Below, piece after piece: positions 70-15,835 of a DNA stretch of 64,000 nt. The DNA comes from a phage: NCBI GenBank assembly GCA_020241125.1, contig GCA_020241125.1_4708.1. One strand, 5' to 3'. Under the pieces are notes generated by a model that saw only the letters and a list, made by a program, of their open reading frames with translations, did no database searches and was not told the origin of the DNA. How positions within the stretch are numbered: position 1 is the stretch's first letter; each line of letters starts with the position of its first letter. A program made the position numbers and the translations under genes.

Positions 70-1410
70 TTAACCTTTGGTATAAGCTTTAACGAGAGTG
101 TTGATAAATGAGGTCAATGCACGAAGATATTGGTAAGCGAATTGGTTTTCAATACGGTTCTCTTTACCGCAAAGCAGAATCGCGCGCTTAACGAGCTTAG
201 GATAGATCTCAACGTACGGTTGGTAGCTCGCATCAAAATTCTGCTCGTTGAAGCGTTTCATGGTAACGTATTGGATGCGTTCCATGGTACGGATTTTATT
301 ACGAGAGAATATCTCAGAGAAAGCACGCCCACGTTTTGTTACCATCAACAGATCTTTCGCGAACGTCAGTTGTCGAACGCTACGCAAATCGTCAGGTGTC
401 GGCAGGACGTACGTTTCCGGGTCACTATCCCATTCAACATCTTCAACGACAATATCCAAATCGAGGTAACGTTTAACCGCATCGATGATATTGTCTTTTG
501 ACGCATCGAATTCTTTCAAGAAGACTGCACCGTTGACGTAGCGGATGCGTTTTCCGGAAACCGTTGGGGTGATAACGTCAGTACCTTCCACGGAACCGCG
601 ATTTTCCAGTGTCGATTTGACAGCGTTCAAGAAAGTCAGATAATCAACGGGAAGTTTTTCAACTTTATCTAAATGGAAGTCGATGATGTTTAATCCTAAC
701 CCATCAATAACTGAATAACCGTCCGATTTAAGGAACATCTGATTGAAGGTATCGATGTTGCTTTTCAGCGCGTCTACACCACCAACGTTGTTACGGTTAG
801 GGAAAAGTGTCCGCCACTCCGCTTTAAACGCAACTTCTTTATTTTCCTCGTATTTGCCTTTAGGCATTTGTTCGAGGTCTGCAACGGCTTTCTGAAAATT
901 GCGCGTCTCGTCGTAAACAAGACGGGTAAGCTTCTCGAAGGCTGCTGCCAGAGTCAGGGCAATATCAACGATGATATCCCAGATCTTTTTCATGGCTTTT
1001 ACAACGGTGTCCTTAAACCCTTCAACAACCAAAGCTTCTCCAACCTCAACACGATCGGTTGGGGTCAGCAATGCTTCGGAGGGTAGACCCAGAGCAATCG
1101 ATGCGGATTCTTGAACGTTACGAACTAATGCAACGTCACTGTAGTTAGCCGATTCGATAGTCGGAGCAACATCAAAACTGATTTCCCGCAGTGCAGCAAC
1201 AGCAGGGAAAGCACGATCAAGTGCATCTTCATGTTCGTCGATTGTCGCTAAACGTAATTCAACACCATCGGCGTCGATGACTTCAGTGGTAGGCTCCACG
1301 GCAAGCGCCTCAGCAACAATAGGATCTTTTTCAAACGCCTCAAGGCTGATATCGCCCTGGGTCGCAAATAGCGGTATGTGTACCATGTGTTGTCTCCAGT
1401 AATGATTCAA
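70..1410 (-). CDS. Hypothetical large acidic protein; candidate virion internal protein (LVxEGF family member)
   Basis: 446-aa ORF; probable true start at internal Met (ATG at 1386) preceded by GGAG; acidic N-terminal ~120 aa followed by LVVEGF and an amphipathic KKIWDII helix shared with the 9751 and 12603 proteins. Confidence 0.55.
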   Translation of the reverse strand: MNHYWRQHMVHIPLFATQGDISLEAFEKDPIVAEALAVEPTTEVIDADGVELRLATIDEHEDALDRAFPAVAALREISFDVAPTIESANYSDVALVRNVQESASIALGLPSEALLTPTDRVEVGEALVVEGFKDTVVKAMKKIWDIIVDIALTLAAAFEKLTRLVYDETRNFQKAVADLEQMPKGKYEENKEVAFKAEWRTLFPNRNNVGGVDALKSNIDTFNQMFLKSDGYSVIDGLGLNIIDFHLDKVEKLPVDYLTFLNAVKSTLENRGSVEGTDVITPTVSGKRIRYVNGAVFLKEFDASKDNIIDAVKRYLDLDIVVEDVEWDSDPETYVLPTPDDLRSVRQLTFAKDLLMVTKRGRAFSEIFSRNKIRTMERIQYVTMKRFNEQNFDASYQPYVEIYPKLVKRAILLCGKENRIENQFAYQYLRALTSFINTLVKAYTKG

Positions 1411-1434
1411 AAGATAAACCTGAGCGGCATAGAA

Positions 1435-1466
1435 CCCTCTCCCAACCCGTAAGGGAAGGGAGAGGG
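1435..1466 (-). terminator. Conserved GC-rich palindromic hairpin (family member 1)
   Basis: CCCTCTCCC-aaCCCgtaaGGGaa-GGGAGAGGG with CATAGAA/ATATG flanks, between two minus-strand genes. Confidence 0.6.
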
Positions 1467-1488
1467 GATATGTCAGTTTATTAACTGA

Positions 1489-2811
1489 TTACTGCTGTGC
1501 TGCGTCAGCCGGTTTCTCAGCCGCCTGGCCGCCGTACTCTTTCAGCATTTTAGCAACGCCATCCAGGACAGCGTTACCTGCCTGAACACCGTATTTCATC
1601 AGACCGGTCTGCGGGTTCACGTAGCAGGAACGTGCGTCTTTCAGTGCAGACAGTACAGCTTGAACACGCTGTTTTTCCTGAGCGGAAACTTCGCCTTTCT
1701 TAGACAGATCGGCTTCCATATCGTCACCGAATTTAACAGCGTCTTTGAAGCCCTGGGATTTCTTACCGATGTTGCCTTTCAGCGCCAGCAGTTTGTCGGC
1801 CAGTGCTTCAACACCGCTAACCGCAGCAGCCAGCTGATTCAGGGACAGGACGGTAGCTTCAACTTCTTTTGCTTCGCCAGAGCGTTCCCAGGTTACTTTA
1901 CCATCATTGGCTTTGAAACCCCAACCTGCCGGGCCAGCAACGTCAGCAATCGCCGGAGCGTTCAGTTTATCAGCGTACTCGGTGTGAGATTTAGCAACAA
2001 CGGTACCAACGAATTTATCAGCACGATCGTCAGCAGCCTTCATTGCTTTCTCGAAGGTGTCAGCGATTTTGGTCGCGCCGGTAACCAGATCATCACCACC
2101 GATGTAACCAGAAACGCCGCTACCCAGTTTAACTTTGGTATTTTTAGCAGCGCCTTTACGCTTGGCGATCATTTCTTTCAGTTTAGCAGCACGTGCTTTC
2201 AGTTTGGTCGCGCCGTCGAAGATGCGATCCATGAACTTCACGAAGGTTTCCCAGGAAGTCTTCAGGAAGTTCTTGATGGTTGCCCACAGTTTCTGCCACC
2301 ATTTTTGTTCTTCCAGGAAGATCATGTTGGTTGCATCGTAGCGGGAAGCGGAACCACCGAAGCTTTCGAAGGAAGGCATGGTTTCCGGCAGTTTGAAACC
2401 GATAGTACCACACAGACGTTTCAGATTACGCATGTGTTCTTGCGCGGTCTGTGCAGACATACCACCGTCTTTCAGGTAGCTTTCGGTTGCAACAACGGTT
2501 TCCGTCAGTTCATCCATGGCTTCGTCCATGGCTTCTGCGGTTTCGTCGTCTTTTGCAATTTCGATAACAACAGCATCAACCTGCTCGATATCACCACGAA
2601 CTTCGATAGCCAGTTCGGTTTCAGCTGCGGTATCTTCAGCGATTTCAGCACGTTCGGTCAGTTCAGCCACAACGGTTTCATCCGCTGGTGCAGCATCAGC
2701 TGCCGGTTCTGCTTCAACGGTTGCCGCTGCATCCGGGTCGATCTCAGCAGCCAGTTGAACCAGCTGTGCGTTAGATGGATTTGCGACAAGACGATCAAAA
2801 ATAGAAGGCAT
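1489..2811 (-). CDS. Hypothetical acidic/coiled-coil protein (scaffold-like or internal virion protein)
   Basis: 440-aa ORF; AAGGA Shine-Dalgarno about 10 nt upstream of ATG at 2811; strongly acidic Ala/Glu-rich N-terminus; WQKLWATIKNF helix resembles motif in neighbouring large proteins. Confidence 0.55.
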   Translation of the reverse strand: MPSIFDRLVANPSNAQLVQLAAEIDPDAAATVEAEPAADAAPADETVVAELTERAEIAEDTAAETELAIEVRGDIEQVDAVVIEIAKDDETAEAMDEAMDELTETVVATESYLKDGGMSAQTAQEHMRNLKRLCGTIGFKLPETMPSFESFGGSASRYDATNMIFLEEQKWWQKLWATIKNFLKTSWETFVKFMDRIFDGATKLKARAAKLKEMIAKRKGAAKNTKVKLGSGVSGYIGGDDLVTGATKIADTFEKAMKAADDRADKFVGTVVAKSHTEYADKLNAPAIADVAGPAGWGFKANDGKVTWERSGEAKEVEATVLSLNQLAAAVSGVEALADKLLALKGNIGKKSQGFKDAVKFGDDMEADLSKKGEVSAQEKQRVQAVLSALKDARSCYVNPQTGLMKYGVQAGNAVLDGVAKMLKEYGGQAAEKPADAAQQ

Positions 2812-2854
2812 AATTTGTTTCCTTTACAATAAATTGCACATTAGCTAATGCGGC

Positions 2855-2879
2855 TTAAGTGAACCGTCAGCTCACTTAA
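2855..2879 (-). terminator. Hairpin at end of gene 2876..3406
   Basis: TTAAGTGA-accgtcagc-TCACTTAA, 8-bp stem overlapping the stop codon; no clear U-tract. Confidence 0.3.
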
Positions 2880-3406
2880 AAGCCCTTAAAACCCGGTGCC
2901 ATAGGTTGCCCAAACACCGCATTCAAAGTACATATGATGTCCTGGATGCCATTGTCCCAATGGAGCCAAGTACGCACCATCTCTTCGTCTGACAACGTGA
3001 TATAACTCATAAGTTTACCGCTGCTTTCCAGGCGTTGGTGTGAACTTAACGACTGACGATCTGACCAGTTATCAATCAATTGACCAGCAATCTGAACGTT
3101 CGTGTCTCGTCTACCCGTGTGAATGAACCGTAGCGTATCACGGATAAACTCCAGACTGGTGAAGTTCAGATTTGGGTTATGGCTGTTCATTTCCACCCAA
3201 TCGGTGATGGGGTACATCAAACGATAAAGGGTAGAAAGAACCTGGCGTTCATATTTCCAGTCATCGAGAGGAGTACCGTCGACCAGACGCTGATACAAAC
3301 TAACAACGTCACGATCGTAGTTCTCCTGGCGTTTTACACCGTTAACCGGAAATCCGAAGAACCCGGTACCGTATAACGTTAAAGGGACGTCACGAAGTGC
3401 ATTCAT
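2876..3406 (-). CDS. Hypothetical protein
   Basis: 176-aa ORF; 4-nt overlap with upstream gene (3403..4305), consistent with translational coupling. Confidence 0.5.
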   Translation of the reverse strand: MNALRDVPLTLYGTGFFGFPVNGVKRQENYDRDVVSLYQRLVDGTPLDDWKYERQVLSTLYRLMYPITDWVEMNSHNPNLNFTSLEFIRDTLRFIHTGRRDTNVQIAGQLIDNWSDRQSLSSHQRLESSGKLMSYITLSDEEMVRTWLHWDNGIQDIICTLNAVFGQPMAPGFKGF

Positions 3407-4305
3407 ACAGCCGCCTCTTCTTTTCGTTTAATATCATAACGAAGTTTCTTCAGTCGCTCTTCGTGATATTCGATCTGCTGCTGGATTTTTGGATCGTTGC
3501 CCGCATTCTGCTGTTTTTGCTTCAGTGACAAAATCCAATACTCCAACGCTTGGGCTTCTTCTTTGGCTGCTTGTAACGACGCTTCTTCACGTTCGCTGCG
3601 CCAGATGCGATAACGGTAAATAAGCGTGTTGGTCATTTGAGTGTCGGACCATGAGCCCATACGCATCGGGTCAGTATTACCCGCGTTGTACAATCCATTA
3701 CCAACACCGTCTTCATCAGAAACCACAACATCCGGGATTTTATCCAACCCAGCAAGGATCTGTTGTTTCTGTCCACACAGCACCTCGGTGGCGATGGCGA
3801 AACCGTACATGTTGGCGGTCAGGTAAGCAATCTCGTTTTTGGTGAAGAACTCACCAAGTGCTTTATCACCACCTGGCATGCTTTCGCAGATGACCGTCGC
3901 ACGAAGCAGCGTACGAGCGTAGCTAACGTAGAAGCCCAGGGACTCAACAAGACGTACCAGAGCGGCTTCTTTGAAACTCAGACCGTCAGCAGCAACATCG
4001 ATTTCCAGGTTTTTGTTAACACGTTTAACAATTTCTGGAATCAGATCAACAGCATTACGTAGCGCTAAGTGAACGTTTTCTACCCAGCTTCCAGAGCGAA
4101 CGCGGGTTAAACGCTGGTGCAGATCCTTATCAGCAAGTTTCCATAAGGCGCTTTCTCCCTTTTGGAGAAGCGAAGCGGATGTCTCGTAGTAAGGAATCGC
4201 GGTGTTGTTGATTTCGTCACGGATTGATTCAAGTGCGTCAGCAACACCGGTGCGTTTAAAAAGCGGCTTCAAACCGCGAATGAATTCTTTAAAATCGATT
4301 GCCAT
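3403..4305 (-). CDS. Hypothetical protein
   Basis: 300-aa ORF in same-strand operon; no recognisable motif. Confidence 0.5.
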   Translation of the reverse strand: MAIDFKEFIRGLKPLFKRTGVADALESIRDEINNTAIPYYETSASLLQKGESALWKLADKDLHQRLTRVRSGSWVENVHLALRNAVDLIPEIVKRVNKNLEIDVAADGLSFKEAALVRLVESLGFYVSYARTLLRATVICESMPGGDKALGEFFTKNEIAYLTANMYGFAIATEVLCGQKQQILAGLDKIPDVVVSDEDGVGNGLYNAGNTDPMRMGSWSDTQMTNTLIYRYRIWRSEREEASLQAAKEEAQALEYWILSLKQKQQNAGNDPKIQQQIEYHEERLKKLRYDIKRKEEAAV

Positions 4306-4344
4306 GAGTGAGCACCTATGCTATTTCGAAACAGGTTGCGTATA

Positions 4345-5451
4345 TTAACGAATCTGTGGGACGTTTCCGGTACGGAGCGCCTGGAGGATCGTCAGGAGAT
4401 CGGAACCCGAGGTTGACGAACTGTTGGATTTTTCCAGCTGCTTGAAGCTTACGGTGGTCCCTTGATCCAAGCTGTGGAAATAGAAGGTCACCATCTCTTC
4501 AGCTTCGTCGATGATGATCAACTGCATTGCGAGGGCTTCAGCCATGACTTTCTGACGTGTGGTATAATCAGATAAACGACGTCCGATCTTACGCTCGATG
4601 GCTTCCTGGTTAGCCTTAGAGATGATATAGGTGGAGGCGATGGCTCCAGAAGAAGGGATCTTTGTGCTCGCTGCAGCTTTTGCGGCATTGATGCGCGCAG
4701 CATTAACAGCCTTACGGATACCCTCTTTATCCATGCGTGAGATTCGTTTGTGTTCGCGAACCAGATCGCTAAGCAGGATCATATCGCTCCAGAAAGACAG
4801 CTCACCGGCCATCATGCGATGCCAACGTGCTCGCCAGGTGTTCTGTGGGCCGCCAATCGCTAAAATCGACGCAAGCACTTCCGCTGGAGAGCTTGCAATA
4901 CGCATGCTGATGTTCAACGGCATTTTCATCGTTGCCTGACCATCGGTCAGCGTCACGGTTAAGAACTTGCCGGTGACCGCGTTTGCATCTTTGTTCAGCA
5001 ATTCGATCGCCGCGTCGCTGGCTCCAACATCGAGGCTATTTTTTTGTTTCCCCTGTAGGTTGAATCCTTTGTCATCAAGGAAAACAAGGCTTTTGCTATC
5101 CGCACTTTCCAGCGCTAATTTAACGGCCTTATCCATCAGGTTAGCGTTACGGTTTGGGTTCACACGACCCAGCGTTTTATCGACACTGATGTTACCCACC
5201 TGCATGATGGTATTCAACGCCAGTAAATAGAACCCGGTATACATGTTTTCAGCGGTGCGCATGCAGTTGCCTAACGCATTGCGTGCGTCGCTATAATACA
5301 ACTCACGTTCAAAGATCAACGGCGCGATAACGCGTGAAGGTTGTGAGAGTTCAACCAGCGAACCTGGCTGGATAAGTTTATTAACTTCGTAGACTTTAGC
5401 GATACCTGACGCAACAACATTAACAGCGTCGGCAATTTCTGATGCTACCAT
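4345..5451 (-). CDS. Hypothetical protein (possibly structural)
   Basis: 368-aa ORF; head of minus-strand block diverging from plus-strand gene at 5453. Confidence 0.5.
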   Translation of the reverse strand: MVASEIADAVNVVASGIAKVYEVNKLIQPGSLVELSQPSRVIAPLIFERELYYSDARNALGNCMRTAENMYTGFYLLALNTIMQVGNISVDKTLGRVNPNRNANLMDKAVKLALESADSKSLVFLDDKGFNLQGKQKNSLDVGASDAAIELLNKDANAVTGKFLTVTLTDGQATMKMPLNISMRIASSPAEVLASILAIGGPQNTWRARWHRMMAGELSFWSDMILLSDLVREHKRISRMDKEGIRKAVNAARINAAKAAASTKIPSSGAIASTYIISKANQEAIERKIGRRLSDYTTRQKVMAEALAMQLIIIDEAEEMVTFYFHSLDQGTTVSFKQLEKSNSSSTSGSDLLTILQALRTGNVPQIR

Positions 5452-5452
5452 A

Positions 5453-6691
5453 TTGAAATCCTTATTTACAAATAAAGGAAAGAAAATGTCTAATTACTAC
5501 GACCAAGCTATTCAAACCATTCAGGAGAATAATGCGTCGTTAACACCCGAAGCTGTGGAGGCAGCGGGCAATGCGGTGTTATTCACTGATTCGGATTGGG
5601 CAATAGCGCGGAAGAATATTCGTACCAGTGTCGGTCAAGGGACATACGAGGACAGTATCGCCAGACGGTATCGGAATGTGTCGCCTATTCCTGGTAACAG
5701 CCCGATCCCGATTAACCGCGATCATGCCGGTATTACCTTCTTCACACGACCTAATTTACATCTTACCGACGCGAACTTAAAACGAGATCGACGTTTGTGG
5801 TCGTTACGTACGGATAACCCTAACAGTATTCAGGCTGTTGTCCGTGACTACTTGGACCCTGTGGGTGCCAGAAAGCGGAACCATCGAGGACGTGCCATCG
5901 TCGATGAGCGCAATCCATTCATAAGTATACTGACGGACAACCTGACGGATATCAGCGGTTTCAATGACATGGAAATGCAGGTCTATCAGGGTAAACCGGG
6001 ATTACGCCAAGAAACCGTTGTGATGGCTGACGGTTCAGTGGATATGTTCCAGCCTTATAACCTGAACGCGACGTTCAAGAACATCATGGGTAACCCCATC
6101 ATGTTCCTTCATTATATTTGGTTGATTTACATCGCAGGCGTGCATAATGGTGAACTGACGCCAAGCCCTCAGGCCATCATCGACAATGAAATGGATTACT
6201 GGACAAGATGCTATCGTATCATCCTGGATCCGACTGGGATGTATGTTCGTTATATCTTCGCACCGACCGCGATGTTTCCTGTCGGGTTACCGATTGGTAA
6301 TATGGCTAACTACAGCATCGATAAACCCTTCACGCAAGATAACGAACGTATCACTATTCCATATCAGGCGGTTGGTAACAACGCGTTCGATGAGATTCTG
6401 AAGGATGAATTCAATCGACTTGTCCTGATGTTCTATTACGGTGAGAACGATACCCGTACGTTCCTTGAAGATGAGGAGCTGGTACCTATCTCACCCTACG
6501 AGCGTCGAATCATGTCGTATCGTGTCGATATGTATCCATTTATTCATCCGTTGACCTCAGAGCTTCTTTGGTTCGTACCCGCTGATGATTACAACGAATT
6601 CTATCTGGATCTTGAGCCGTCGGCGTTACCACCGGATACGTTCAGTCGCGATCTTGTCCGTACCACCATTCCGCAAAATTACGAGGGATAA
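5453..6691 (+). CDS. Hypothetical protein
   Basis: 412-aa ORF; likely true start at ATG 5486 (MSNYYDQ) preceded by AAAGGAAAG; followed 4 nt later by next gene. Confidence 0.55.
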   Translation: MKSLFTNKGKKMSNYYDQAIQTIQENNASLTPEAVEAAGNAVLFTDSDWAIARKNIRTSVGQGTYEDSIARRYRNVSPIPGNSPIPINRDHAGITFFTRPNLHLTDANLKRDRRLWSLRTDNPNSIQAVVRDYLDPVGARKRNHRGRAIVDERNPFISILTDNLTDISGFNDMEMQVYQGKPGLRQETVVMADGSVDMFQPYNLNATFKNIMGNPIMFLHYIWLIYIAGVHNGELTPSPQAIIDNEMDYWTRCYRIILDPTGMYVRYIFAPTAMFPVGLPIGNMANYSIDKPFTQDNERITIPYQAVGNNAFDEILKDEFNRLVLMFYYGENDTRTFLEDEELVPISPYERRIMSYRVDMYPFIHPLTSELLWFVPADDYNEFYLDLEPSALPPDTFSRDLVRTTIPQNYEG

Positions 6692-6694
6692 TAA

Positions 6695-9688
6695 ATGAGC
6701 GTAACCAACAAAGATCTTGCTGAACAGCTCAATCGCTATATGCTTTCACCTATTGAAATGCAGGCTGTTGCAAGCGATATGATCCGTTTGGCCTCTGATG
6801 GCGAGTTAACCCTGGTTGACCCCAGCTGTCCGTTTGTTTATCTGCTGGAGGTTGCAACGGCAACGGCTGCGAACCAGAACGCACGAGATGAGTCCCGTGT
6901 TCGCGAACTGTATCCGAAGCTTGCAACCAACTGGAGCCAGCTCTATCGTTGGATGTATGATGAGTCGTACGTCGGACGTTTCGCAATGCCGGGTAAAACG
7001 GAAATCATTTATTCGTTAGGGTATCAGGAAATCCTCGATCGCGCTGTAGAGATTCCCAACACCATCGCCTCCGATGATTTGAGCCGTTCTTACAGCCGTA
7101 AGTTAGTGATACCACGTACGACAGCGTTTACGGTAGCCGGAATGGATTTCGGGTTACATTATCCCATCGAAATCCAAGTACAAGCGCACGACCAGATCCG
7201 CGTCGTTTATAACACCGATAACATCAGCCCATTGCAAACCTTGGAGAGTAACCAAGTTGAGTACGGGGTCGTTCGTGTAAAAGCGGGTAAAGTGTTGGTG
7301 ATGCGTATCCCGCTGTTCCAGTTTAAAACGCTGGTAAAAGATGTGCCGTTTAACAGCGTTCACGGGATGAACAGCAGTATTACCTTCGAAGATCAGTTTT
7401 ACCATTGTCGTGCGTATATGTCGTCGGATAACGATACCTGGACGGAGATAGCGACAACGCACAGTCAACAGATCTACGATCCGTTAACACCAACCATCGC
7501 GTTACAAGTAGAAGGGAACAAACTTAACTGGCGTGTTCCTGAAATTTATTTGTCTCAAGGTACGATGGATAAAAGCACCATTCGACTTGAGGTGTTGACG
7601 ACGAAAGGGAAAATCAGCGTCGACCCGTCTGATTACGACGTGACCGACTGGAAAGATAATTACATCGATTTGTCACCAAAAGCCGAACAGAAATACAGTG
7701 CGCCGCTAAGTGCATTCAACATTAAAGGGATTTATAGCGAGGGGGCGTTGTCTGGTGGGCGATCCGCGTTAACGTTCGAGGAACAACGTGAACGCGTTAT
7801 GGCGGGAGTGAACAAAACCAAGGTACCAATCACAGGAACGCAGGTCGAGCTGGTGCTTCAAGATGCGGGTTATGGGATGGTGACCACCATCGACAACGTA
7901 ACCAATCGTTCGTTCCTGGCAACCCGAGATTTACCGCAATTGAGCGACAGCGTGCCGCAAGCCGGTTCGTTGATGGGGTCTTTCTATACGTCAGCTGCAG
8001 CATTGGTGAAAAGTAAGTTTGTCGCTGATAACGGCGACAGTATTACGATTAAACCTGATTGCTTGTATCGTGACAGTAACGGAAGTATCACGCTGTTGTC
8101 AGACGATGAAATTGACCGTATTAATGCAGGTGACTCTGATGCGAAGTTGAACGCGGTAAACAACGCCATGTTGTTCTACAGTCCGTTTCATTACGTATTA
8201 GATGCGACAAGCGATTTCGACATCCATGCTTATTACCTGGATGCCCCTAAGATCGGCACACAAGCCTTCCTCGACGCGAACGAGACAATCCCGTTAACCG
8301 CTATGGTGACCGGATACCGTCTGGATCGTATCGCCGAAGGATATCGTCTAAGCCTCATTGTAGAAGGTAACGACGCATGGAAAGCGCTCGACGATAAAAA
8401 CGTGCACATCCAGCTGGGGTTCAATCCGCGTGGTGAGGGTGATTACGCAACGATGTTAGCATCGCCTACAACCGATGAACAAGGTCGTCGTTTGTTCACT
8501 TTCGATATCACCACGAATTATGATTTTACGCGAATCCTGGCCGATGATTCCACGGCGTATGAACCATATATCGCATTGACTTCGTTCTCGATGTATGAAT
8601 CGACACCGCGGGATTATTGGGCATCACTGCAGCAGTATTTGGAAATATTCCATGTGGTGACGGATTACGCACCGGAAGATGTCGACGGTATTTTACACAG
8701 CGCTTCCGATAATTACCTGGTTAAGAAACTCACGCTTCAAAATGGGTATTGTTTCTACCGTGAACGTCTCACCGCAACCTTTGGTTATGATCTGGATGGT
8801 CTTTGGATGCGTTCTCGTACGGTAGCCTCGGAGATCACGTATAAACGTTACACCGAGAACATTCCGTGGGTGTATGATGAAGATATCCCAGCGACGGATG
8901 AGACCGGTTCTGTTATCATTGAGCAAGGCGATGATGGTACGTTGTCGGTTAAATATCTGCATCGTAAAGGAGATCCGAAATTAAACAGTGATGGAAGCCA
9001 AGCCTATCGTTACCTGAAAGGCGACATCATGAAAGATAATTACGGTAATCCGATCCCCGTCGATGAACGTGAGGTTCTGCGTAACCTGGACATGTTCTTT
9101 ATTGATGCGTCGTATCTGTTAGCGAACGATACAGACGTGATTGAGTACCGTAATGCGATTCCTACGCAGCTTATCGAATGGATCCAGAACGATATCGACA
9201 CGTTCAGGAATTTCTGTTATGAAGAAACAGAGATTTCACTGTATCCTAAGCAATCGCTGGGGTATGTGGATGTTATTGTGGAAAACGGATTGGAAACGAC
9301 GCTTCCTGCTGCCTTATCGTTCAACGTGACACTGTACTTACCAGCTAAGCAATACGCCGACCTGGATTTACGTCAAGTCCTTCAAGCGATGGTGTCGAAA
9401 GTCATCAATGAATGCTTGACATCCCGTACGGTGGCTAAAGCAGAAATGATCGCGATGATTCGTGAGGAGGGCGGTGACGACATCCTTAACGTTGAAATCG
9501 ATGATTTTGGACCAGGTAAGAACCTCAGTGTTTATACCGCGAAGAACGACGGTGTTCGTTGTGCGGTGAAGAAAGAGCTTTATGTGAAAGCGGATGGTAT
9601 CTTGTCCGTACGTGAAGCGATCGATGTAAGTTTTGTGAAACACGCACAAAGCAACAGTTCAGCGCTAGCGCAAGGCCTTCGTGTCTAA
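6695..9688 (+). CDS. Hypothetical large protein (997 aa)
   Basis: Long uninterrupted ORF; ends at convergent junction carrying palindromic hairpin 9710..9741. Confidence 0.6.
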   Translation: MSVTNKDLAEQLNRYMLSPIEMQAVASDMIRLASDGELTLVDPSCPFVYLLEVATATAANQNARDESRVRELYPKLATNWSQLYRWMYDESYVGRFAMPGKTEIIYSLGYQEILDRAVEIPNTIASDDLSRSYSRKLVIPRTTAFTVAGMDFGLHYPIEIQVQAHDQIRVVYNTDNISPLQTLESNQVEYGVVRVKAGKVLVMRIPLFQFKTLVKDVPFNSVHGMNSSITFEDQFYHCRAYMSSDNDTWTEIATTHSQQIYDPLTPTIALQVEGNKLNWRVPEIYLSQGTMDKSTIRLEVLTTKGKISVDPSDYDVTDWKDNYIDLSPKAEQKYSAPLSAFNIKGIYSEGALSGGRSALTFEEQRERVMAGVNKTKVPITGTQVELVLQDAGYGMVTTIDNVTNRSFLATRDLPQLSDSVPQAGSLMGSFYTSAAALVKSKFVADNGDSITIKPDCLYRDSNGSITLLSDDEIDRINAGDSDAKLNAVNNAMLFYSPFHYVLDATSDFDIHAYYLDAPKIGTQAFLDANETIPLTAMVTGYRLDRIAEGYRLSLIVEGNDAWKALDDKNVHIQLGFNPRGEGDYATMLASPTTDEQGRRLFTFDITTNYDFTRILADDSTAYEPYIALTSFSMYESTPRDYWASLQQYLEIFHVVTDYAPEDVDGILHSASDNYLVKKLTLQNGYCFYRERLTATFGYDLDGLWMRSRTVASEITYKRYTENIPWVYDEDIPATDETGSVIIEQGDDGTLSVKYLHRKGDPKLNSDGSQAYRYLKGDIMKDNYGNPIPVDEREVLRNLDMFFIDASYLLANDTDVIEYRNAIPTQLIEWIQNDIDTFRNFCYEETEISLYPKQSLGYVDVIVENGLETTLPAALSFNVTLYLPAKQYADLDLRQVLQAMVSKVINECLTSRTVAKAEMIAMIREEGGDDILNVEIDDFGPGKNLSVYTAKNDGVRCAVKKELYVKADGILSVREAIDVSFVKHAQSNSSALAQGLRV

Positions 9689-9709
9689 AACAAAATAGCA
9701 TGAGCATAA

Positions 9710-9741
9710 CCCTCCTCCAACCCAACAGGGAAGGAGGAGGG
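9710..9741. terminator. Conserved palindromic hairpin (member 2) at convergent gene junction
   Basis: CCCTCCTCC-aaCCCaacaGGGaa-GGAGGAGGG flanked by GCATAA/ATATGC. Confidence 0.6.
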
Positions 9742-9750
9742 AATATGCTG

Positions 9751-12543
9751 TTATCTTACGTTAGTGTTATTCTGTTGTTCACTGAACCAACCATACACCT
9801 TGAGATCGGTACCGTATCTCAGTGCGATATACGCATTCAGCGCAGCACAGAACAAAGACGCGAATGCCCATATCAGCGAAGGATCAACATCTTCCGTTAC
9901 CACTGGGAGAGTATTATCCGGTTCCCATGATGGTGAACTGTCCATGAACGTTGCGTACCATCCCCGCCGTTGTTCTTCAGTGGTAAAGTCGCTATGAGGT
10001 TCCAACGCTTCTTTTGCCAGACGTCGATATTCGAACATATGCGTTGCTAAAGCCGATGAGTTACCAGATTCGCCTTCATAGTTCGGATCCACCGCATAAC
10101 AGAGTTCTGTTGAATCTAACAAAGCAACCGCCTGTGTGATGCTGTCGGCAGTACCTGCACCATAGAGCTCGATAGACCGCGAAAGCTTCTCACAGAACGC
10201 ATTTAACGCGGAAGGATTGGACACCTGAAGGTCAAGGCCTAATGTCCACGGATAGTTACTGAATACACCCGTAAACCGCGGCATAACACCCAACAGATGT
10301 TGTCCGATTACAGCACGGTTATAAACAGCCCTGTTATAGACTTGAAACGCAGCCTCCAGGGCTTGGTTATAATGACGACGAAGTTCGTCACGCGAGTTGC
10401 GGAATCTGTTTGCCGCAAGACTCGTGGCTGCGACGCTACAAACATCGTAATTGGTGGACGAGAGCACAACTTCGTTAAGATCGAACGCTTCCTGTTTCAA
10501 TGTTCCGCTAACAGCCGCTGCTTCGCTGTTCGCTTTATCGACAACTGTACTCAAAGCGTTAATATAACGTTTAGCTCGGACTTCCAACCATTGTGCGATA
10601 CCGAGAATATCCACCGCAGCTTTAGCAAGATCGCGTGCGTTCACGATTTCGTTCTTCAAAGCCCCTAAACCTTTATTTTCAGGCGATGAGGCTTGTTGAC
10701 GAATCATGCTGTTTAACATGGTAAGCAGATTATCCAGCTCATGTCCGCTGACCTTGTTGCGCGCATCGGTAATCGGCCCTTGCAGGAATTTACGGCAACC
10801 ATCGTTGTATCGAATCAGTTTATCCACATCGATAGATTCGTTCGTGGATTCCTTGAACTGATCCTTCAATTCTTCACGGTAGTCATGGATTTCACTTGCG
10901 AGATTATCGATAGTGATACCGTTATGTCCAAGAAGAACTTTATTGAAGTTACCTTTCTCGAATGCCAGAGCAAGACCTTCACGAATCTTAGCGAGTTTAT
11001 CCTGATCGAGTTCACGACCGTTCGATAGCTCTTTCACTTCCGAGCTGATTAATGCCGAAACGTTACCCAGATTGTCGGTAACCCCTTTGAACGCTCCCGA
11101 CCAGATCGTTCCTGCTTCAGCATATTTCGCAATGGTCTGAATACCGACGGTGTGCAGCGACGCTAAACGTTTCTTCGTGCCTTCGGTAAGCAGAGCGTCT
11201 TTAGCTCGCGTAAGCTGACTGTTATTAGCTTCCGCCTGCTGAATCGCTGCTTTCGCACTTCCATTACGCCAGCTCTTAACTAACCAATCAACCAAACGTT
11301 TTAGGATATTGACGGTGTATTCCATTGTCCGCCGTAACGTTTCCCACGCGCTTTCTGCGGTATAGATGCCGTACCCTTCCATCTTCGTTGGGTCAAAGAA
11401 ACCTTCCTGCACGAGATCGATACGTGTGTAGCCATCAGCAGCTTCTACTTCCGCCTGGGTTTTATCCCAGAAGTCGTCGCTCTTTGCAGCAATCGCTGTA
11501 TCTTTAACGTCCAGGATGATCTGACCAACCGTTTGTGCAAACAGCAAGGCCGCACGTACCGATTGTGCGAACATCCGCTGATATTTGATTCGAACGCATT
11601 GCATCTGGGTTAGCAGATTCAGTTGTGCGATCCCATCCAAGGTGCTATCCTGAGCAAGCCCTTCGGCTTTAGCGATAACCTGTTTTACACGTTCAGCGAC
11701 ATCACCGTACTGCTGGCAAACATCCCGCAGAATACGTGTTGCGAAGACCCCGGTACCGATATAGTTCAATAGGTCTTTTAACGACCATTCGGTCGGACAA
11801 TCGGTCGGCGCAATAGGGAGTAAGCAACCATCACCGTCCATGAATCTCTCTAATGCGCTAATATCCTGATTTTCTACGCTCATGGGGATATCGACATCAG
11901 CCGCTTGCAGATCCAGCATCTGTTGTAGGATGTTGGTATCGGCTTGTACAAGCGTCGCAAGCGCTTGGCTGTGTGCGATTATTGGTAACGCAGGCGACCA
12001 TACTGCAGCAAGCTTGTCGGCGTGACGTTGAATGGCATACCCCATATCCTCGATCACATCGGGATGCTCGATAACCCCCTGAAGCGTTTGATGTAGCTCA
12101 CCGAGTTGCTGAGACAGATCGACCATCATGGTGTTGAAGGTTTCGCCATCCTCTTTGTGGTTGTCCAGACGCTCGAGTTCATGTCGAAGCAATATGACGA
12201 GCTGTCCGTTGCCTTCTTGCTTCAGCTTGCTTTCCATTAACGTAATGGCTTTATCGACGATCTGGCACGCTTCACGAAAACCGGTTGTGGAAGGAAGCTC
12301 TGTCCATAACGCCAGCGGTTTACCGTCAAGGGCTTCCGGCATCGATAACGAAAGCATAGACAGTTGTTGACGTGATACTTGCTGTTCACAGTGTAATGTT
12401 TCTTTTAACGCCAGGAGATCGTCAAGAAACGCGCCGTTAAGGGTGGTCGTACGCGGTGTTGAATTAATACCGTCAGTTAACGATTCAAGCACCAGGAGAC
12501 CGTTATCAGCTGAAGAGAGTCCCGCGGCAAGATATTTGTTCAT
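9751..12543 (-). CDS. Hypothetical large helical protein; candidate internal/ejection protein (LVxEGF family)
   Basis: 930-aa ORF; contains LVQEGFFDP and a downstream LVDWLVKSW helix resembling motifs in the 70..1410 and 12603..15398 proteins; predicted highly alpha-helical. Confidence 0.55.
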   Translation of the reverse strand: MNKYLAAGLSSADNGLLVLESLTDGINSTPRTTTLNGAFLDDLLALKETLHCEQQVSRQQLSMLSLSMPEALDGKPLALWTELPSTTGFREACQIVDKAITLMESKLKQEGNGQLVILLRHELERLDNHKEDGETFNTMMVDLSQQLGELHQTLQGVIEHPDVIEDMGYAIQRHADKLAAVWSPALPIIAHSQALATLVQADTNILQQMLDLQAADVDIPMSVENQDISALERFMDGDGCLLPIAPTDCPTEWSLKDLLNYIGTGVFATRILRDVCQQYGDVAERVKQVIAKAEGLAQDSTLDGIAQLNLLTQMQCVRIKYQRMFAQSVRAALLFAQTVGQIILDVKDTAIAAKSDDFWDKTQAEVEAADGYTRIDLVQEGFFDPTKMEGYGIYTAESAWETLRRTMEYTVNILKRLVDWLVKSWRNGSAKAAIQQAEANNSQLTRAKDALLTEGTKKRLASLHTVGIQTIAKYAEAGTIWSGAFKGVTDNLGNVSALISSEVKELSNGRELDQDKLAKIREGLALAFEKGNFNKVLLGHNGITIDNLASEIHDYREELKDQFKESTNESIDVDKLIRYNDGCRKFLQGPITDARNKVSGHELDNLLTMLNSMIRQQASSPENKGLGALKNEIVNARDLAKAAVDILGIAQWLEVRAKRYINALSTVVDKANSEAAAVSGTLKQEAFDLNEVVLSSTNYDVCSVAATSLAANRFRNSRDELRRHYNQALEAAFQVYNRAVYNRAVIGQHLLGVMPRFTGVFSNYPWTLGLDLQVSNPSALNAFCEKLSRSIELYGAGTADSITQAVALLDSTELCYAVDPNYEGESGNSSALATHMFEYRRLAKEALEPHSDFTTEEQRRGWYATFMDSSPSWEPDNTLPVVTEDVDPSLIWAFASLFCAALNAYIALRYGTDLKVYGWFSEQQNNTNVR

Positions 12544-12557
12544 AAAACACTCCGTTG

Positions 12558-12590
12558 GCCTAGGGGAAGGTTTTCAGCCTTCCCCTAGGG
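12558..12590 (-). terminator. Palindromic hairpin (member 3)
   Basis: CCTAGGGGAAGG-ttttcag-CCTTCCCCTAGG perfect 12-bp stem with CATAAA flank. Confidence 0.55.
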
Positions 12591-12602
12591 TTATAAACAC
12601 AA

Positions 12603-15398
12603 TTAAGCTAATTTACCGAAACCGGCTTTCTGCAGTTTCTCGTTGATGATTTTCGCTTCAGCGAAGACGTAATCGCGGTAGGCGGTCACTAACGCATCCA
12701 CACGTGAACGCAAGGCTTCTTCGAAGCTATACCACGCTGCGATTTCACGAATCTGTGCGTTGATATAATCAACGGTTGAGCGAAGCTCGGTTGCGTTTTC
12801 TTGCGGAACGGCTTTCACCTGGCGAGCAACGTCATTTAAACGGCGGAACTGTGTTTCGATTTCTTTAAACTTACTGTCGGCAAGTTTGCTGAATTCGTCA
12901 CCAGAACGGGTAAATAACAGATAGCTGTTGCCGTCAAGTGCGGTCGCTAACTGCTGAAGTACGTTGGTGTCCGGATACACAGGAGTACCGCTTTGCAGTA
13001 CTTTCTCACCGAATTCCGCGAAGTCCTTCGGTGGTAAGTGTGCAGACGTTGTCAATTCGTTGAAACGGAAAGTCAGCGAATTATCATACAGCATCCGGTA
13101 CGCTTCCATACCCTGTTTCATGGTACCGGCCAGGTTAGCCAGACGCGGAGCAATCTCGCCTTCTTTAGCGCGTTTCTGGTCTTCTAACGCCCCTTCGAGT
13201 TCTTTACACTGGTCGTTCAGATACACGATACGATCAGGACGTAGACGACGCATCTCACGAAGAATAGTATCCAGCTTACCTTCCTGGAAATAACCCAACG
13301 TTAAAGACGTACACGCTTGCTGAAGACGATCGAACACCGGTAAGGTTACCATCTCCTTACGGATACCATCAACAATCGCAGAAACAGCCGAAAGTTTCTG
13401 TTCTGTAGTCAATGGAACATCAGAGGCCGACTTGCTGGGTGCACCAACAACGTTACGCATTGCGTCGGTATCCTCGGTTTTATCAACCTCTTTACGAACA
13501 TGCTCATCAGGAACATAAACGTTCGCGTTACGTTTCGCCTGCTTGATGGCGTCGTTGGCCGCTTTTTCGGTGGCCGCTACGCTATCGGCACGTTTCTTCA
13601 AGAGTTCAATAATCCAGAGCAACAGACGACGAATCGCAGTGTAGGCTGTCGTGATGATGACACCGATAACAGCCATCTTCATGATACCGAACGATTCCAT
13701 GGTCGGCTCTAACGCTTGGTCTGGCATATACCGTTCACGCAGCTCCAGATAGATCTGCTCATCTGGTTTGCTGACCTCACCACGATGCGAAGTCCGATAA
13801 ATGGCTTCGTCAATCTCAACAAGATCTTTGCGTGCCTGACGGTCAGATTCTGTTAGGTAAGCACAACCGGATACGTCGTCTTCGAAGCTTAAGAATTTGA
13901 AAAAGTCACTGACGTCGATCTTGATCTTCTTCGCTTCATTATCGACATCGATAACATCTTTTTTCTGTGCCTGATATTCCGCTTTGATGTCGTTCACCGG
14001 CTTCAACGCACGTTCTTTTAATACCTGCACGATCTGTTTCCAGTCGGCGTCACGCTCAAGAACAAGGAAGTAATTCTTGAGTTCAAAAGCACGGTAACGC
14101 GCAACGAGTTGTTCTACCTGAATATGAGCGAGTTGCACATCCATCAGCCAACGCGACATTGCTGAGATCAAACGGCTATAAGCAAGCAATGTCTGATATG
14201 TTAGCTTCATGTGCTTTTCGTACAGCTCAATATCGCCGTCTTGAATATCAGCCGTTGGGTTCATTTCCTTCGTTGCTTTGAAGATCTGTTCGGCCTCATT
14301 TAACGTTTGTTCGAATTTGACTTCATTAAACGTGTCAAACGGTTCAGCCAACTCCATCATTCGATCGTGAAGCTCACGAACCCAGGCTTCCTTATTGTTG
14401 CGAATAGCTGCGTCATCGTGAAGTTCAGTTTGATGTTTCTGTACCCATTCTTCGACGATATCAGCGGCGGCAACAATTCCTGTACCATCGGAAACTAACG
14501 GAACAACTCCAGCAAGTACGCCTACACACGCCGGGGTTTTCCAATAATCGTTCAAAGCGTTTCTGAATTCAACGATGGATTGTACGTTTGGTACCGTATC
14601 CAAAAACGTACTGCCGTTACGGCTCATTGTCGTTACGATATCAGCGAATTCCTTCTGCTTAGCGGTAACAAAAGGAACCAGGACCATAAGCCATTCAGCA
14701 ACCGACTTCGCTTTCTCTTTCAGATTTTTGTCAGCGATTTCCTTAAGGTTTATCGCACCACCGTAACCTGCAAGCTCTTTATATACGTCGCTAAGGGTCA
14801 TCTGTTTATCCAACATTTCTTTGAAACGTGGGTAATCAGCACCTAACGCATCGACAATATCGTTGATTACGTCATCAGTTGTTGCGATAAACTTCTTCGT
14901 ATCAACGTTTGAATATTTCCAGACGTATCGTACTGCTTTCTTGATTCCTGCAAAGATAAACGCCCAGATACGCTTGATGAGTTCCCAGACTTTCTTCGCG
15001 CCATCGACAAACAGTTTAGAGACCTTGGCAACGAATCCTTCCTGCACCAATTCAACGCCGTTACGTGATGGGATTTCCGTGAAGAAAGCATCCGGCAGTT
15101 GTTTCGGGAATGCGTCACCAAGACGCATACGCAGTTCCGGTACATCAGCACGAGAAATACCGCGTGTTACTAATTGTTCGTGAAGACGAACGTTTTCTTC
15201 ACCAGAGGTCACGAATTCGTCAACATCGAAGGAGACCATTGTTTCCTGATCTTCGGTGGTAACGACGCTTGAACCATCACTGGTTTGGATGTCTTCGTCA
15301 GGGAATGCCATGAGCATACCGTGACGCATTTCAACCACCCCGTAATCGGTTGCTAAACCGAATTCGTTGTGGTCTGGGGTAATAACTGGGATACTCAT
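12603..15398 (-). CDS. Hypothetical large helical protein with a hydrophobic segment; candidate internal/ejection protein (LVxEGF family)
   Basis: 931-aa ORF; acidic N-terminal ~110 aa then LVQEGF and KKVWELIKRIW helix; hydrophobic stretch IMKMAVIGVIITTAYTAIRRLLLWII. Confidence 0.55.
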   Translation of the reverse strand: MSIPVITPDHNEFGLATDYGVVEMRHGMLMAFPDEDIQTSDGSSVVTTEDQETMVSFDVDEFVTSGEENVRLHEQLVTRGISRADVPELRMRLGDAFPKQLPDAFFTEIPSRNGVELVQEGFVAKVSKLFVDGAKKVWELIKRIWAFIFAGIKKAVRYVWKYSNVDTKKFIATTDDVINDIVDALGADYPRFKEMLDKQMTLSDVYKELAGYGGAINLKEIADKNLKEKAKSVAEWLMVLVPFVTAKQKEFADIVTTMSRNGSTFLDTVPNVQSIVEFRNALNDYWKTPACVGVLAGVVPLVSDGTGIVAAADIVEEWVQKHQTELHDDAAIRNNKEAWVRELHDRMMELAEPFDTFNEVKFEQTLNEAEQIFKATKEMNPTADIQDGDIELYEKHMKLTYQTLLAYSRLISAMSRWLMDVQLAHIQVEQLVARYRAFELKNYFLVLERDADWKQIVQVLKERALKPVNDIKAEYQAQKKDVIDVDNEAKKIKIDVSDFFKFLSFEDDVSGCAYLTESDRQARKDLVEIDEAIYRTSHRGEVSKPDEQIYLELRERYMPDQALEPTMESFGIMKMAVIGVIITTAYTAIRRLLLWIIELLKKRADSVAATEKAANDAIKQAKRNANVYVPDEHVRKEVDKTEDTDAMRNVVGAPSKSASDVPLTTEQKLSAVSAIVDGIRKEMVTLPVFDRLQQACTSLTLGYFQEGKLDTILREMRRLRPDRIVYLNDQCKELEGALEDQKRAKEGEIAPRLANLAGTMKQGMEAYRMLYDNSLTFRFNELTTSAHLPPKDFAEFGEKVLQSGTPVYPDTNVLQQLATALDGNSYLLFTRSGDEFSKLADSKFKEIETQFRRLNDVARQVKAVPQENATELRSTVDYINAQIREIAAWYSFEEALRSRVDALVTAYRDYVFAEAKIINEKLQKAGFGKLA

Positions 15399-15835
15399 GC
15401 ATTCTCTCCTTGCAGTGCGTTAGCGAAAGCCGTTGCGAGTTGCGCAACCAGCTTAGGATCAACACCTTCGATAACGTCGGGCAGCCCTGCGGTTTCTTGG
15501 TCACGAACGGCGGAGGCTAATAACAGCATGGTTTCAGGTGCGGTCGGCTCATGCACCATGCGGTAACGCAGGCACCAGAAGTAGCGGGCAACGTCTAACG
15601 CATCGGCCAGCCCAATAACCAGTACCTTGTTCAGCTTATCCAGCCCTTCACGGATTTTAGGGAGATGTTCGCGAACGAAAATGCTATCTGCGGTCAGATC
15701 TTCTTTTTCAGCGAATACGGGCATGCTGTAACCAGCGATATAACCTGCGGCAATACTTAGCGCACGGGTCTGTTGTTCGGCTGGGAAATCACGTACCAGG
15801 TCTTTCAGCTGAACGGCGAAATCAGAAATATTCAT
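15395..15835 (-). CDS. Hypothetical protein
   Basis: 146-aa ORF; 4-nt overlap with downstream gene. Confidence 0.5.
   Translation of the reverse strand: MNISDFAVQLKDLVRDFPAEQQTRALSIAAGYIAGYSMPVFAEKEDLTADSIFVREHLPKIREGLDKLNKVLVIGLADALDVARYFWCLRYRMVHEPTAPETMLLLASAVRDQETAGLPDVIEGVDPKLVAQLATAFANALQGENA

Follow-up and report, generated by a model that had tools for sequence, protein, structure and literature searches.

A putative prohead-protease site, LV(V/Q)E↓GF, in internal head proteins of a Goslar-like jumbo phage

Introduction

Does a hexapeptide that recurs in several head proteins of a jumbo phage mark the bond at which these proteins are matured? The question is raised by a 64,000-nucleotide stretch of phage DNA (contig GCA_020241125.1_4708.1 of NCBI GenBank assembly GCA_020241125.1; the whole stretch is called the window), in which three genes located between positions 70 and 15,398 encode LVVEGF or LVQEGF. 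A sequence-only reading of the DNA had pointed out the motif, and it was confirmed on the minus strand for all three products. The first 16 kb of the window display 95.6% nucleotide identity with Escherichia phage vB_EcoM_Goslar (hereafter Goslar), and their genes correspond one to one with Goslar genes. On the basis of this identity and gene map, the window is assigned by sequence to a Goslar-like phage, Goslar itself being a nucleus-forming E. coli jumbo phage of the Chimalliviridae. The three products are homologs of Goslar gp57, gp64 and gp65, while a fourth gene flagged together with them encodes the gp58 homolog; the Goslar names are used throughout.

Internal head proteins of φKZ, 201φ2-1 and SPN3US are well known to lose long N-terminal propeptides by proteolysis. 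In the Goslar lineage, processing of head proteins has so far been suggested only for the major capsid protein. The sequence-only reading had supposed that the flagged products are packaged in the head, which is already established for Goslar since all four were identified as virion head proteins by label-free quantification mass spectrometry and cryo-electron microscopy (bioRxiv 10.64898/2026.04.21.720040). Here, we argue that LV(V/Q)E↓GF (the arrow marks the bond) is probably a prohead-protease maturation site of head-internal proteins, and we hold this view with higher confidence for gp65 and gp57 than for position E380 of gp64.

Results

Three copies of the motif precede amphipathic helices

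The motif LV.EGF occurs three times in the 70 non-overlapping open reading frames (ORFs) of the window (20,018 aa), as compared to a mean of 0.022 in 1000 within-protein shuffles of this set, in which three copies were never reached. All three copies directly precede an amphipathic helix containing Trp. The helices KKIWDII, LVDWLVKSW and KKVWELIKRIW, named in the sequence-only reading, are real: the best 18-mers of the helices have hydrophobic moments of 0.64–0.73 and rank within the top 0.1–1.2% of each protein, with a moment of 0.70 (top 0.1%) for LVDWLVKSW of gp64. A chance origin of the three occurrences, in favour of which there is the shortness of the motif and nothing else, is practically negligible given the shuffle expectation and the same structural position immediately before the helix in each case.

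The ORF delimited mechanically at 70..1410 (446 aa) begins at a TTG codon (1410) that has no ribosome-binding site, whereas a GGAG Shine-Dalgarno sequence lies 8–11 nt ahead of the ATG at 1386, the start used in the Goslar annotation. The ATG is most likely the start of gp57, giving a protein of 438 aa, not 446, with the motif at aa 119–124. The acidic segments reported ahead of the site were found in gp57 and gp65 (net charges in Table 1) as well as in gp58, whose first 110 residues have a net charge of −27. The C-terminal parts are near neutral or basic in gp57 (+2) and gp58 (+10), and still acidic in gp65 (−14). The layout of an acidic 110–130-aa leader followed by the motif holds for gp57 and gp65; it does not hold for gp64, in which the motif lies at aa 377–382.

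The motif of gp65 coincides with the mapped cleavage site of φKZ gp86

Cleavage sites have been mapped in several related phages. The SPN3US protease gp245 cuts after A-x-E, and the SPN3US PF12699 proteins mature at E125↓GWKETLKDLFER (gp53, an E↓GW bond) and at E137↓SLWDDIK (gp54). φKZ gp86 is processed at SQE-122 (via PMC5694885, PMC9026906) and 201φ2-1 gp148 at SQE-113. SPN3US gp47 is cut at AVE-79, with ALE-111 being its expected, not mapped, maturation site, and the mature protein begins with a hydrophobic helix. When these homologs are anchored on the cleaved Glu, they display the same order as the window proteins, namely a leader of ~110–137 aa, the Glu, a small residue, a hydrophobic or aromatic residue and a Trp-containing helix; the leaders are strongly acidic except that of SPN3US gp47.

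gp65 has been described as one of the five "vertex binding complex" proteins of the inner capsid surface and as a homolog of φKZ gp86 (bioRxiv 10.64898/2026.04.21.720040). Its locus lies between the gp87 and gp85 homologs, as does φKZ gp86, and homologs of φKZ gp91, gp89, gp88, gp87 and gp85 are found between and around the four flagged ORFs. We aligned the N-termini of 11 gp86-position proteins, including members from φKZ, SPN3US, RAY, PhiEaH1 (Erwinia), RP12 (Ralstonia) and pTD1 (Vibrio) together with gp65 and gp64 of the window. In this alignment, the Glu of gp65 LVQE↓GF shares a column with the Glu of φKZ gp86 SQE-122. Two motifs are conserved upstream, G-[IVM]-S-[RK] and [FWY]T-x-x-PS[RT], and they may constitute a targeting or protease-docking element.

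A hidden Markov model (HMM) built from the non-Goslar gp86-position members was then used to search 436 ORFs of at least 80 aa in the first 229 kb of Goslar. gp65 ranked first (E=1.3e-11, aa 70–155) and gp64 second (E=3.6e-4, aa 42–107, plus a weak second match at 401–443), so that both belong to the gp86 family, gp64 by its N-terminal ~65 aa only. They were followed by gp54, gp56, gp53 and gp57, and all eight of gp53–58, gp64 and gp65 appeared within the top 16, each over the site-plus-helix part of the model. In addition, aa 823–911 of Goslar gp53 match aa 133–229 of SPN3US gp54 (E=3e-4); by offset arithmetic on this local match, IAME827↓GF falls on the mapped ARE137↓SLW.

Goslar gp65 chains are present in PDB entries 11fg, 11mk and 36za. 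In the composite model 36za, gp65 is built from residue 134 to 934 and starts at KKVWELIKRIW, 14 residues past E119↓GF (Goslar numbering). Two proteins of the same entry serve as controls: the processed major capsid protein is modelled from 158 to 740 (positive), and gp66 from 1 to 142, untruncated (negative). The missing 157 residues of the major capsid protein were read as a sign of processing by the authors of the structure preprint (bioRxiv 10.64898/2026.04.21.720040). The chains with gp65 and gp66 sequences carry the name "Inner-peripheral baseplate spoke gp32" in 36za, apparently a labelling error. In the sequence-only reading, a hydrophobic segment in one product was considered consistent with envelope insertion upon ejection; for gp65 this idea found no support, as its hydrophobic segment (aa 570–600) lies within the residue range (134–934) of the deposited capsid-bound chain.

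As to the wider family, six chimallivirus genera share both propeptide motifs a few residues before the cleavage Glu, the gp65 copy FTEIPSR being encoded at 15063–15083. The interval between the gp87 and gp85 homologs contains a single gene in φKZ and SPN3US but two in many chimalliviruses. For RAY and RP12, each gene of the pair encodes a leader of ~100 aa together with a small-x-E site and a helix of the Trp or membrane-like type; for PhiEaH1 and pTD1 this layout was seen in one gene of the pair only. SPN3US gp47 has a hydrophobic membrane-like helix right after its site, and by our own reading so do RAY gp289 and PhiEaH1 gp232.

A generalised form of the site in gp57, gp58 and their paralogs

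gp58 matches Pfam PF12699 (E=4.4e-22, 79.3 bits with a gathering cutoff of 27), whereas the match of gp57 is weak and under the cutoff (E=8.7e-5, 22.3 bits). gp57 is paralogous to Goslar gp56 (E=8e-18) and gp55 (E=3e-9). About 2150 copies of gp58, which has a PF12699 domain, and about 50 copies of gp57, with a predicted PF12699 fold, are present per virion (bioRxiv 10.64898/2026.04.21.720040). A C-terminal GFP fusion, gp58-sfGFP, is packaged and then injected into the early-infection vesicle. Ejection, one of the roles suggested in the sequence-only reading, is borne out for gp58; gp65 is bound to the inner wall of the capsid.

A generalised motif, [LIVM]-x-x-E↓[GAS]-[FWY], is found at the junction preceding the Trp helix in all Goslar PF12699 paralogs as well as in gp64 and gp65 (Table 1). 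An ORF scan of Goslar (70,904 aa) returned 29 matches, 11 of them in this gene block; with gp54 added, the block count is 12, while the block's share of residues is ~7% (estimate). Position P3 is occupied by Val in gp57, gp64 and gp65, by Lys at the E685 site of gp64, and by Thr or Asn in the paralogs gp54 and gp55; a small P3 (S/A/G) was seen only in gp58 (VATE, PSFE) and gp53 (IAME). Equivalent sites of other chimalliviruses carry, for the most part, S/A/G at P3, for instance VAVE↓GL, VATE↓GF, VGCE↓SF and AGLE↓SI. The sites of the Goslar lineage display an aliphatic P4, often V, T, N or K at P3, and an aromatic P2'.

Canonical [SAG]-x-E sites are not enriched in the leaders beyond the expectation from composition. 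In gp57 there is none between aa 44 and 122, and G-V-E43↓L lies upstream. gp58 has two candidates, and by eye its PSFE↓SF parallels VSVE↓SF ... VAVE↓GL-KATIKNWWQKLKAWF in gp226 of the Erwinia phage PhiEaH1.

gp64, a divergent relative of gp65

gp64 is present at ~110 copies per virion and no role has been discussed for it (bioRxiv 10.64898/2026.04.21.720040). Its relatives are rare: only 4 were found among 1.84 billion cluster representatives, and the best 120 matches of a homolog search were all near-identical Goslar-like proteins (at least 98%). gp64 gave no match in Pfam, PHROG or PDB, and for gp64 and gp65 no family of known function was matched in Pfam or PHROG. Neither protein matched PF12699, also when searched as fragments. 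A common fold of their mature parts with the PF12699 proteins cannot be claimed, with hhalign probabilities of only 0.2–15%, and a fold comparison of gp64 based on AlphaFold2 (single sequence) was useless at a mean predicted local distance difference test (pLDDT) score of 36.

A distant gp64 ortholog, P0122, is ~30% identical and has WTAIPSTTG followed directly by DLAME↓GF; at this position, which is the canonical one of the gp86 type, the gp64 of the window has REACQ. Conversely, LVQEGF of gp64 lies inside a 22-aa insertion, which looks like a local duplication and which P0122 does not have. P0122 retains DLAME↓GF, YTTE↓GAW and YKAE↓SF at the corresponding places. In another relative, P0121, identity with gp64 is 47.6% over residues 1–370 and 95.7% over 371–930, the switch being located at the motif; the relative that carries a 77%-identical gp64 also has a gp65 97% identical. 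As judged from these comparisons, the gp86-position gene seems to be present in a second, divergent copy, gp64, in which the cleavage site has shifted.

The sequence-only reading had treated the motif-bearing products as one family. This did not hold: gp57 is PF12699-like, gp64 and gp65 are gp86-position proteins, and beyond ~60 aa no similarity could be detected between the two groups. The hexapeptide could nevertheless be a relic of common ancestry, or a short cassette shuffled among paralogous head proteins, that no protease reads. The paralogy of the gp64 and gp65 N-terminal regions and that of gp55, gp56 and gp57 would agree with such an origin, as would the insertion that harbours the gp64 copy. 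We consider it quite improbable, since similarity of gp57 to gp64 and gp65 vanishes outside ~60 aa and the 30%-identical ortholog preserves the Glu, the small residue and the aromatic residue amid changed surroundings, at positions coinciding with mapped cleavage sites of other phages. Furthermore, the two LVQEGF copies (gp64 and gp65) use different synonymous codons and have unrelated flanks, which argues that their identity is kept at the protein level and is not due to a recent DNA copy.

Virion peptides and the candidate protease

Published virion peptides of Goslar (liquid chromatography–tandem mass spectrometry, Table S4) were looked up over the range of peptides that sort alphabetically up to "ELK". 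One of them, ANSEAAAVSGTLKQE (score 108, area 14,100), is a semi-tryptic gp64 peptide whose non-tryptic end, the C-terminus, falls precisely on LKQE685↓AF; its partner, AFDLNEVV..., was not found in this range of Table S4. The spacing between E380 and E685 is 305 residues, similar to the ~300-residue mature parts of PF12699 proteins, with no homology of this part to them demonstrable by hhalign or with Pfam fragments. In the gp57 leader, none of the three tryptic peptides expected in the range was listed, two of them being good ones from aa 59–89, and the single peptide tested from the gp56 leader was also absent from the range. Peptides that would be diagnostic of candidate cuts include AFDLNEVVLSSTNYDVCSVAATSLAANR for gp64, and SYDQK, LVQLSYDQK and SEELVQLSYDQK for the major capsid protein.

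The candidate protease is Goslar gp212, annotated as head maturation protease. It matches Pfam Peptidase_S80 (PF20034) with E=1.3e-78, is 30% identical to φKZ gp175 (E=1e-21) and has the same neighbours as in φKZ. In Goslar gp41 (L002:13440–15662, outside the window), the major capsid protein, the first modelled residue, S158, follows ELVQL↓SY (residues 153–159), a near copy of ELVQE↓GF with Leu at P1, and the canonical GCE150 and SEE153 lie just upstream; ELVQL↓SY hints that P1 of the Goslar protease sites may not be strictly Glu.

Cleavage at the motif weighed against cleavage upstream

Several observations count against cleavage at the motif. For the φKZ and SPN3US proteases, a small P3 residue (S/A/G) is a reported requirement, and this position is Val in the motif and Thr, Asn or Lys in paralogs. 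In gp65, a canonical G-V-E116 precedes the motif by four residues and may be where the protein is really cut. The sequence IQIE↓GF is found inside the mature major capsid protein, where it is evidently uncut, so that the motif alone is insufficient for cutting. Leader peptides are listed for gp58 (aa 55–72, area 4880) and gp55 (aa 52–62, area 1130), and ADVPELRMR of the gp65 leader (aa 83–91) at trace level (area 451, low score). Peptides from the N-terminal parts occur at normal level for gp64 (aa 274–318, areas 8390 and 2420) and for the 827-aa N-part of gp53 (areas 287,000 and 79,000). Finally, the gp212 gene lies outside the window, which contains no protease homolog, and was identified in the ~95%-identical Goslar.

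Regarding the leader peptides, Table S4 likewise lists a peptide from the propeptide of the major capsid protein; because of this, their presence is no argument against processing and has little discriminating power. The gp64 N-part peptides in virions imply that the 380-aa N-part is not expelled. The long N-terminal parts of gp64 and gp53 evidently stay in the capsid, cut off or not, and for gp53 the peptide across IAME↓GF gives a very low signal (area 541, score 36). Removal of a propeptide at E↓GF, as put forward in the sequence-only reading, is partly supported: the bond matches mapped sites of homologs and the gp65 model lacks residues 1–133, but the gp64 N-part is no expelled acidic propeptide.

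The P3 requirement, the nearby GVE and the uncut IQIE↓GF would all fit a different explanation, in which the motif belongs to the mature protein, as a helix cap or a capsid/scaffold docking element, and cutting occurs only at canonical S/A/G-x-E sites upstream such as G-V-E116↓L in gp65 and G-V-E43↓L in gp57. The conservation of G-F and of the aliphatic P4, which exceeds the published requirements of the proteases, also favours it. We regard this explanation as unlikely. The mapped SQE Glu of φKZ gp86 aligns with the Glu of LVQE and not with that of GVE, and SPN3US gp53 matures exactly at E↓GW. Residues 120–133 of gp65 are not ordered in the capsid model and hence form no structural core. In gp57 the two good tryptic peptides (aa 59–89) went undetected, yet aa 44–122 have no canonical site, and the gp64 virion peptide ends at LKQE↓AF, with Lys at P3. 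Altogether, comparison with the mapped homologs strongly suggests cleavage at E↓GF in this lineage.

Gene map and genomic context of the window

The coordinates of the flagged genes, their sites, and two neighbours are given in Table 1.

Table 1. Genes, putative sites and helices of the flagged region, with sites of Goslar paralogs (arrow, putative cleavage)
Feature	Protein	Position	Strand	Description
gp57 homolog	gp57	70..1386	-	438 aa; 96.6% identical to Goslar gp57; PF12699-like internal head protein
amphipathic Trp helix	gp57	913..1011	-	aa 126-158, KKIWDII; moment 0.64, top 1.2% of 18-mers
LVVEGF	gp57	1015..1032	-	putative cleavage E122↓G123; site LVVE↓GF
acidic N-segment	gp57	1021..1386	-	aa 1-122, net charge -19; putative propeptide
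gp58 homolog	gp58	1489..2811	-	440 aa; 99.5% identical to Goslar gp58; dominant PF12699 internal head protein
Trp-rich amphipathic helix	gp58	2185..2310	-	EQKWWQKLWATIKNFLKTSWETFVKFMDRIF...; moment 0.68, top 0.2%
PSFESF	gp58	2359..2376	-	second candidate E149↓SF, 20 aa ahead of Trp helix
VATESY	gp58	2476..2493	-	candidate E110↓S, end of most acidic stretch; canonical A-x-E form; site VATE↓SY
gp59 homolog	gp59	2876..3406	-	φKZ gp91 vertex-binding protein (Pfam PF25618, E=1e-46, and preprint assignment); context
gp64 homolog	gp64	9751..12543	-	930 aa; 98.8% identical to Goslar gp64; lineage-restricted virion protein; divergent gp65 paralog over its N-terminal ~100 aa
LKQEAF	gp64	10483..10500	-	aa 682-687; site LKQE↓AF, cleavage after E685 indicated by virion peptide; P0122 YKAE↓SF
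YTAESAW	gp64	11344..11364	-	aa 394-400; second possible site E397↓S, just before LVDWLVKSW; P0122 YTTE↓GAW
LVQEGF	gp64	11398..11415	-	aa 377-382; putative site E380↓G; site LVQE↓GF
gp86-propeptide-like region	gp64	12223..12420	-	aa 42-107; VSR ... WTELPSTTG; canonical cleavage Glu replaced (REACQ)
gp65 homolog	gp65	12603..15398	-	931 aa; vertex-binding-complex protein, inner capsid wall; φKZ gp86 / SPN3US gp47 family
hydrophobic segment	gp65	13599..13691	-	aa 570-600, MAVIGVIITTAYTAIRRLLLWIIELL; inside modelled range 134-934 of 36za
amphipathic Trp helix region	gp65	14919..15032	-	aa 123-160, KKVWELIKRIW...; moment 0.73, top 0.1%
LVQEGF	gp65	15033..15050	-	putative cleavage E120↓G121 (Goslar numbering E119↓G120); site LVQE↓GF
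N-segment	gp65	15039..15398	-	aa 1-120, net charge -16; putative propeptide; conserved GISR and FTEIPSR
gp66 homolog	gp66	15395..15835	-	φKZ gp85-like vertex-binding-complex partner; served as unprocessed control
site in paralog	Goslar gp56			IVLE↓GF
site in paralog	Goslar gp55			LNME↓SF
site in paralog	Goslar gp54			LTME↓SY
sites in paralog	Goslar gp53			IAME↓GF, also LKQE↓SF

The gp65 of the window is 85.5% identical to Goslar gp65, with neighbours at 97–99.5%, and the differences cluster at ~aa 140–330 and 450–505. In one relative (L009), a gp65 97% identical adjoins a gp64 whose first 370 aa are at 47.6% identity. By sequence comparison, the internal head proteins of Goslar-like phages form a mosaic. 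Searches for further relatives yielded little: tblastn of gp65 against the phage collection found Goslar only, the C-terminal fragment of a distant gp65 ortholog (contig L008) had no matches, and scans of viral contigs gave near-identical loci only with gp63 as the query and none with the gp63-like protein of L008. The Avs5/JADA work has no bearing on these proteins.

Downstream of the flagged region, 83% of window positions 16001–41000 align to Goslar in 9 pieces at 93.5% identity, and on this alignment the segment carries indels or replacements relative to Goslar. No tRNA genes or Rfam families were found in the whole window. Many assemblies that bear an E. coli or Salmonella enterica label have near-identical gp64 copies (98–100%) on contigs of ~233–244 kb, and one copy, on an E. 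coli O157-labelled contig (238 kb), is 100% identical to gp64 of the window. Goslar-like phages seem to travel along with sequenced enterobacterial isolates, and an assembly of this sort is the probable source of the window.

Discussion

Virion location, homology, motif statistics, the truncated start of the modelled gp65 chain and a single peptide that ends at E685 are the observed facts behind a probable maturation site at LV(V/Q)E↓GF. The following scheme would account for them; the protease as cutter, the exact E↓GF bond and the role of the leaders are the parts that we infer. gp57, gp58 and gp65 would be made with a strongly acidic N-terminal leader of 110–150 aa which, by analogy, may bring the protein into the prohead and keep the following amphipathic helix inactive. 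During head maturation, a protease of the Peptidase_S80 family (Goslar gp212, homolog of φKZ gp175 and SPN3US gp245) would cut after the Glu, and the short acidic leaders would be fragmented further and largely lost. The mature proteins would then start with G-F (or S-F/S-Y) and the amphipathic Trp helix. gp58, and probably gp57, would stay with the DNA and be injected into the early-infection vesicle, while gp65 would remain attached on the inside of the eleven vertices other than the portal vertex. For gp64, internal cuts would fall at E685 and probably also at E380, E397 or both, with all fragments kept in the virion.

A more far-reaching version joins two changes, and we put it forward tentatively, as a possibility for which we would not claim the better odds. 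The rule of the Goslar protease may have shifted from S/A/G-x-E to an aliphatic P4, a relaxed P3, Gly, Ser or Ala at P1' and Phe or Tyr at P2'. gp64 may be a gp86-family offshoot that lost the canonical site and regained one 285 residues downstream via the 22-aa insertion; its fast-evolving 380-aa N-domain would be released and kept in the capsid, possibly as injection cargo.

gp65 shares with φKZ gp86, 201φ2-1 gp148 and SPN3US gp47 the position between the gp87 and gp85 homologs on the opposite strand, the homologous N-terminus, and a Glu in the alignment column of the cleavage site, ~110–120 aa from the start and followed by an amphipathic or hydrophobic Trp helix; like φKZ gp86, it sits in the vertex-binding complex. 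It differs by its length (931 aa with an extra folded domain, against 422–577 aa) and by Val instead of Ser or Ala at P3. Goslar-like phages also differ in carrying gp64, a second, very divergent copy that has lost the canonical site and has motifs at aa 380 and 685. gp57 and gp58, in turn, resemble the PF12699 phiKZ_IP proteins (φKZ gp93–97, SPN3US gp53/gp54) in having an acidic leader of 110–150 aa and a mature part of ~300 aa that opens with a Trp helix, the equivalent point being where SPN3US gp53 (E↓GW) and gp54 (E↓SLW) mature; these proteins are high-copy, packaged and injected. In the Goslar lineage, in contrast, a single member (gp58) dominates the copy number, and at the putative sites P3 is variable (V, T, N, A) while the aliphatic P4 and aromatic P2' are conserved.

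The comparison with the gp21 system of T4 is one of function only. There too, a Glu-specific prohead serine protease, distantly related to S80, trims internal proteins that are later injected. The T4 gp21 site is (L/I)-x-E, with L/I at P3, and a T4-type substrate has a short N-terminal targeting peptide of ~10–20 aa that ends in (L/I)-x-E. gp57, gp58 and gp65 depart from this type, with leaders of 110–150 aa and Val at P3 of the motif. The T4 capsid-targeting sequences are much shorter than these leaders, and only the SPN3US gp45 propeptide (20 residues) is of comparable length; the aliphatic residue stands at P4 in the window proteins, and the substrates of the two systems have no sequence homology. 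The likeness to LxE sites of T4 and giant phages, noted in the sequence-only reading, is apt with regard to a Glu-specific prohead protease and inexact in register, Leu being at P4 and Val at P3.

The window adds a new lineage to a known type of processing, with a motif that apparently differs at P4, P3 and P2', and with gp64 as an unusual family member. It provides a concrete list of candidate cleavage sites in at least eight head proteins, together with a hint that the Goslar protease and its φKZ and SPN3US counterparts do not have the same subsite preferences; a known mechanism is refined in this way, and no new one is proposed. For tagging, the C-terminus would be the safe place and not the N-terminus. 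Along with their DNA, chimalliviruses deliver internal head proteins into the host by injection, in numbers of hundreds to thousands, and the exact mature N-termini tell which polypeptides, and which exposed amphipathic helices, enter the cell.

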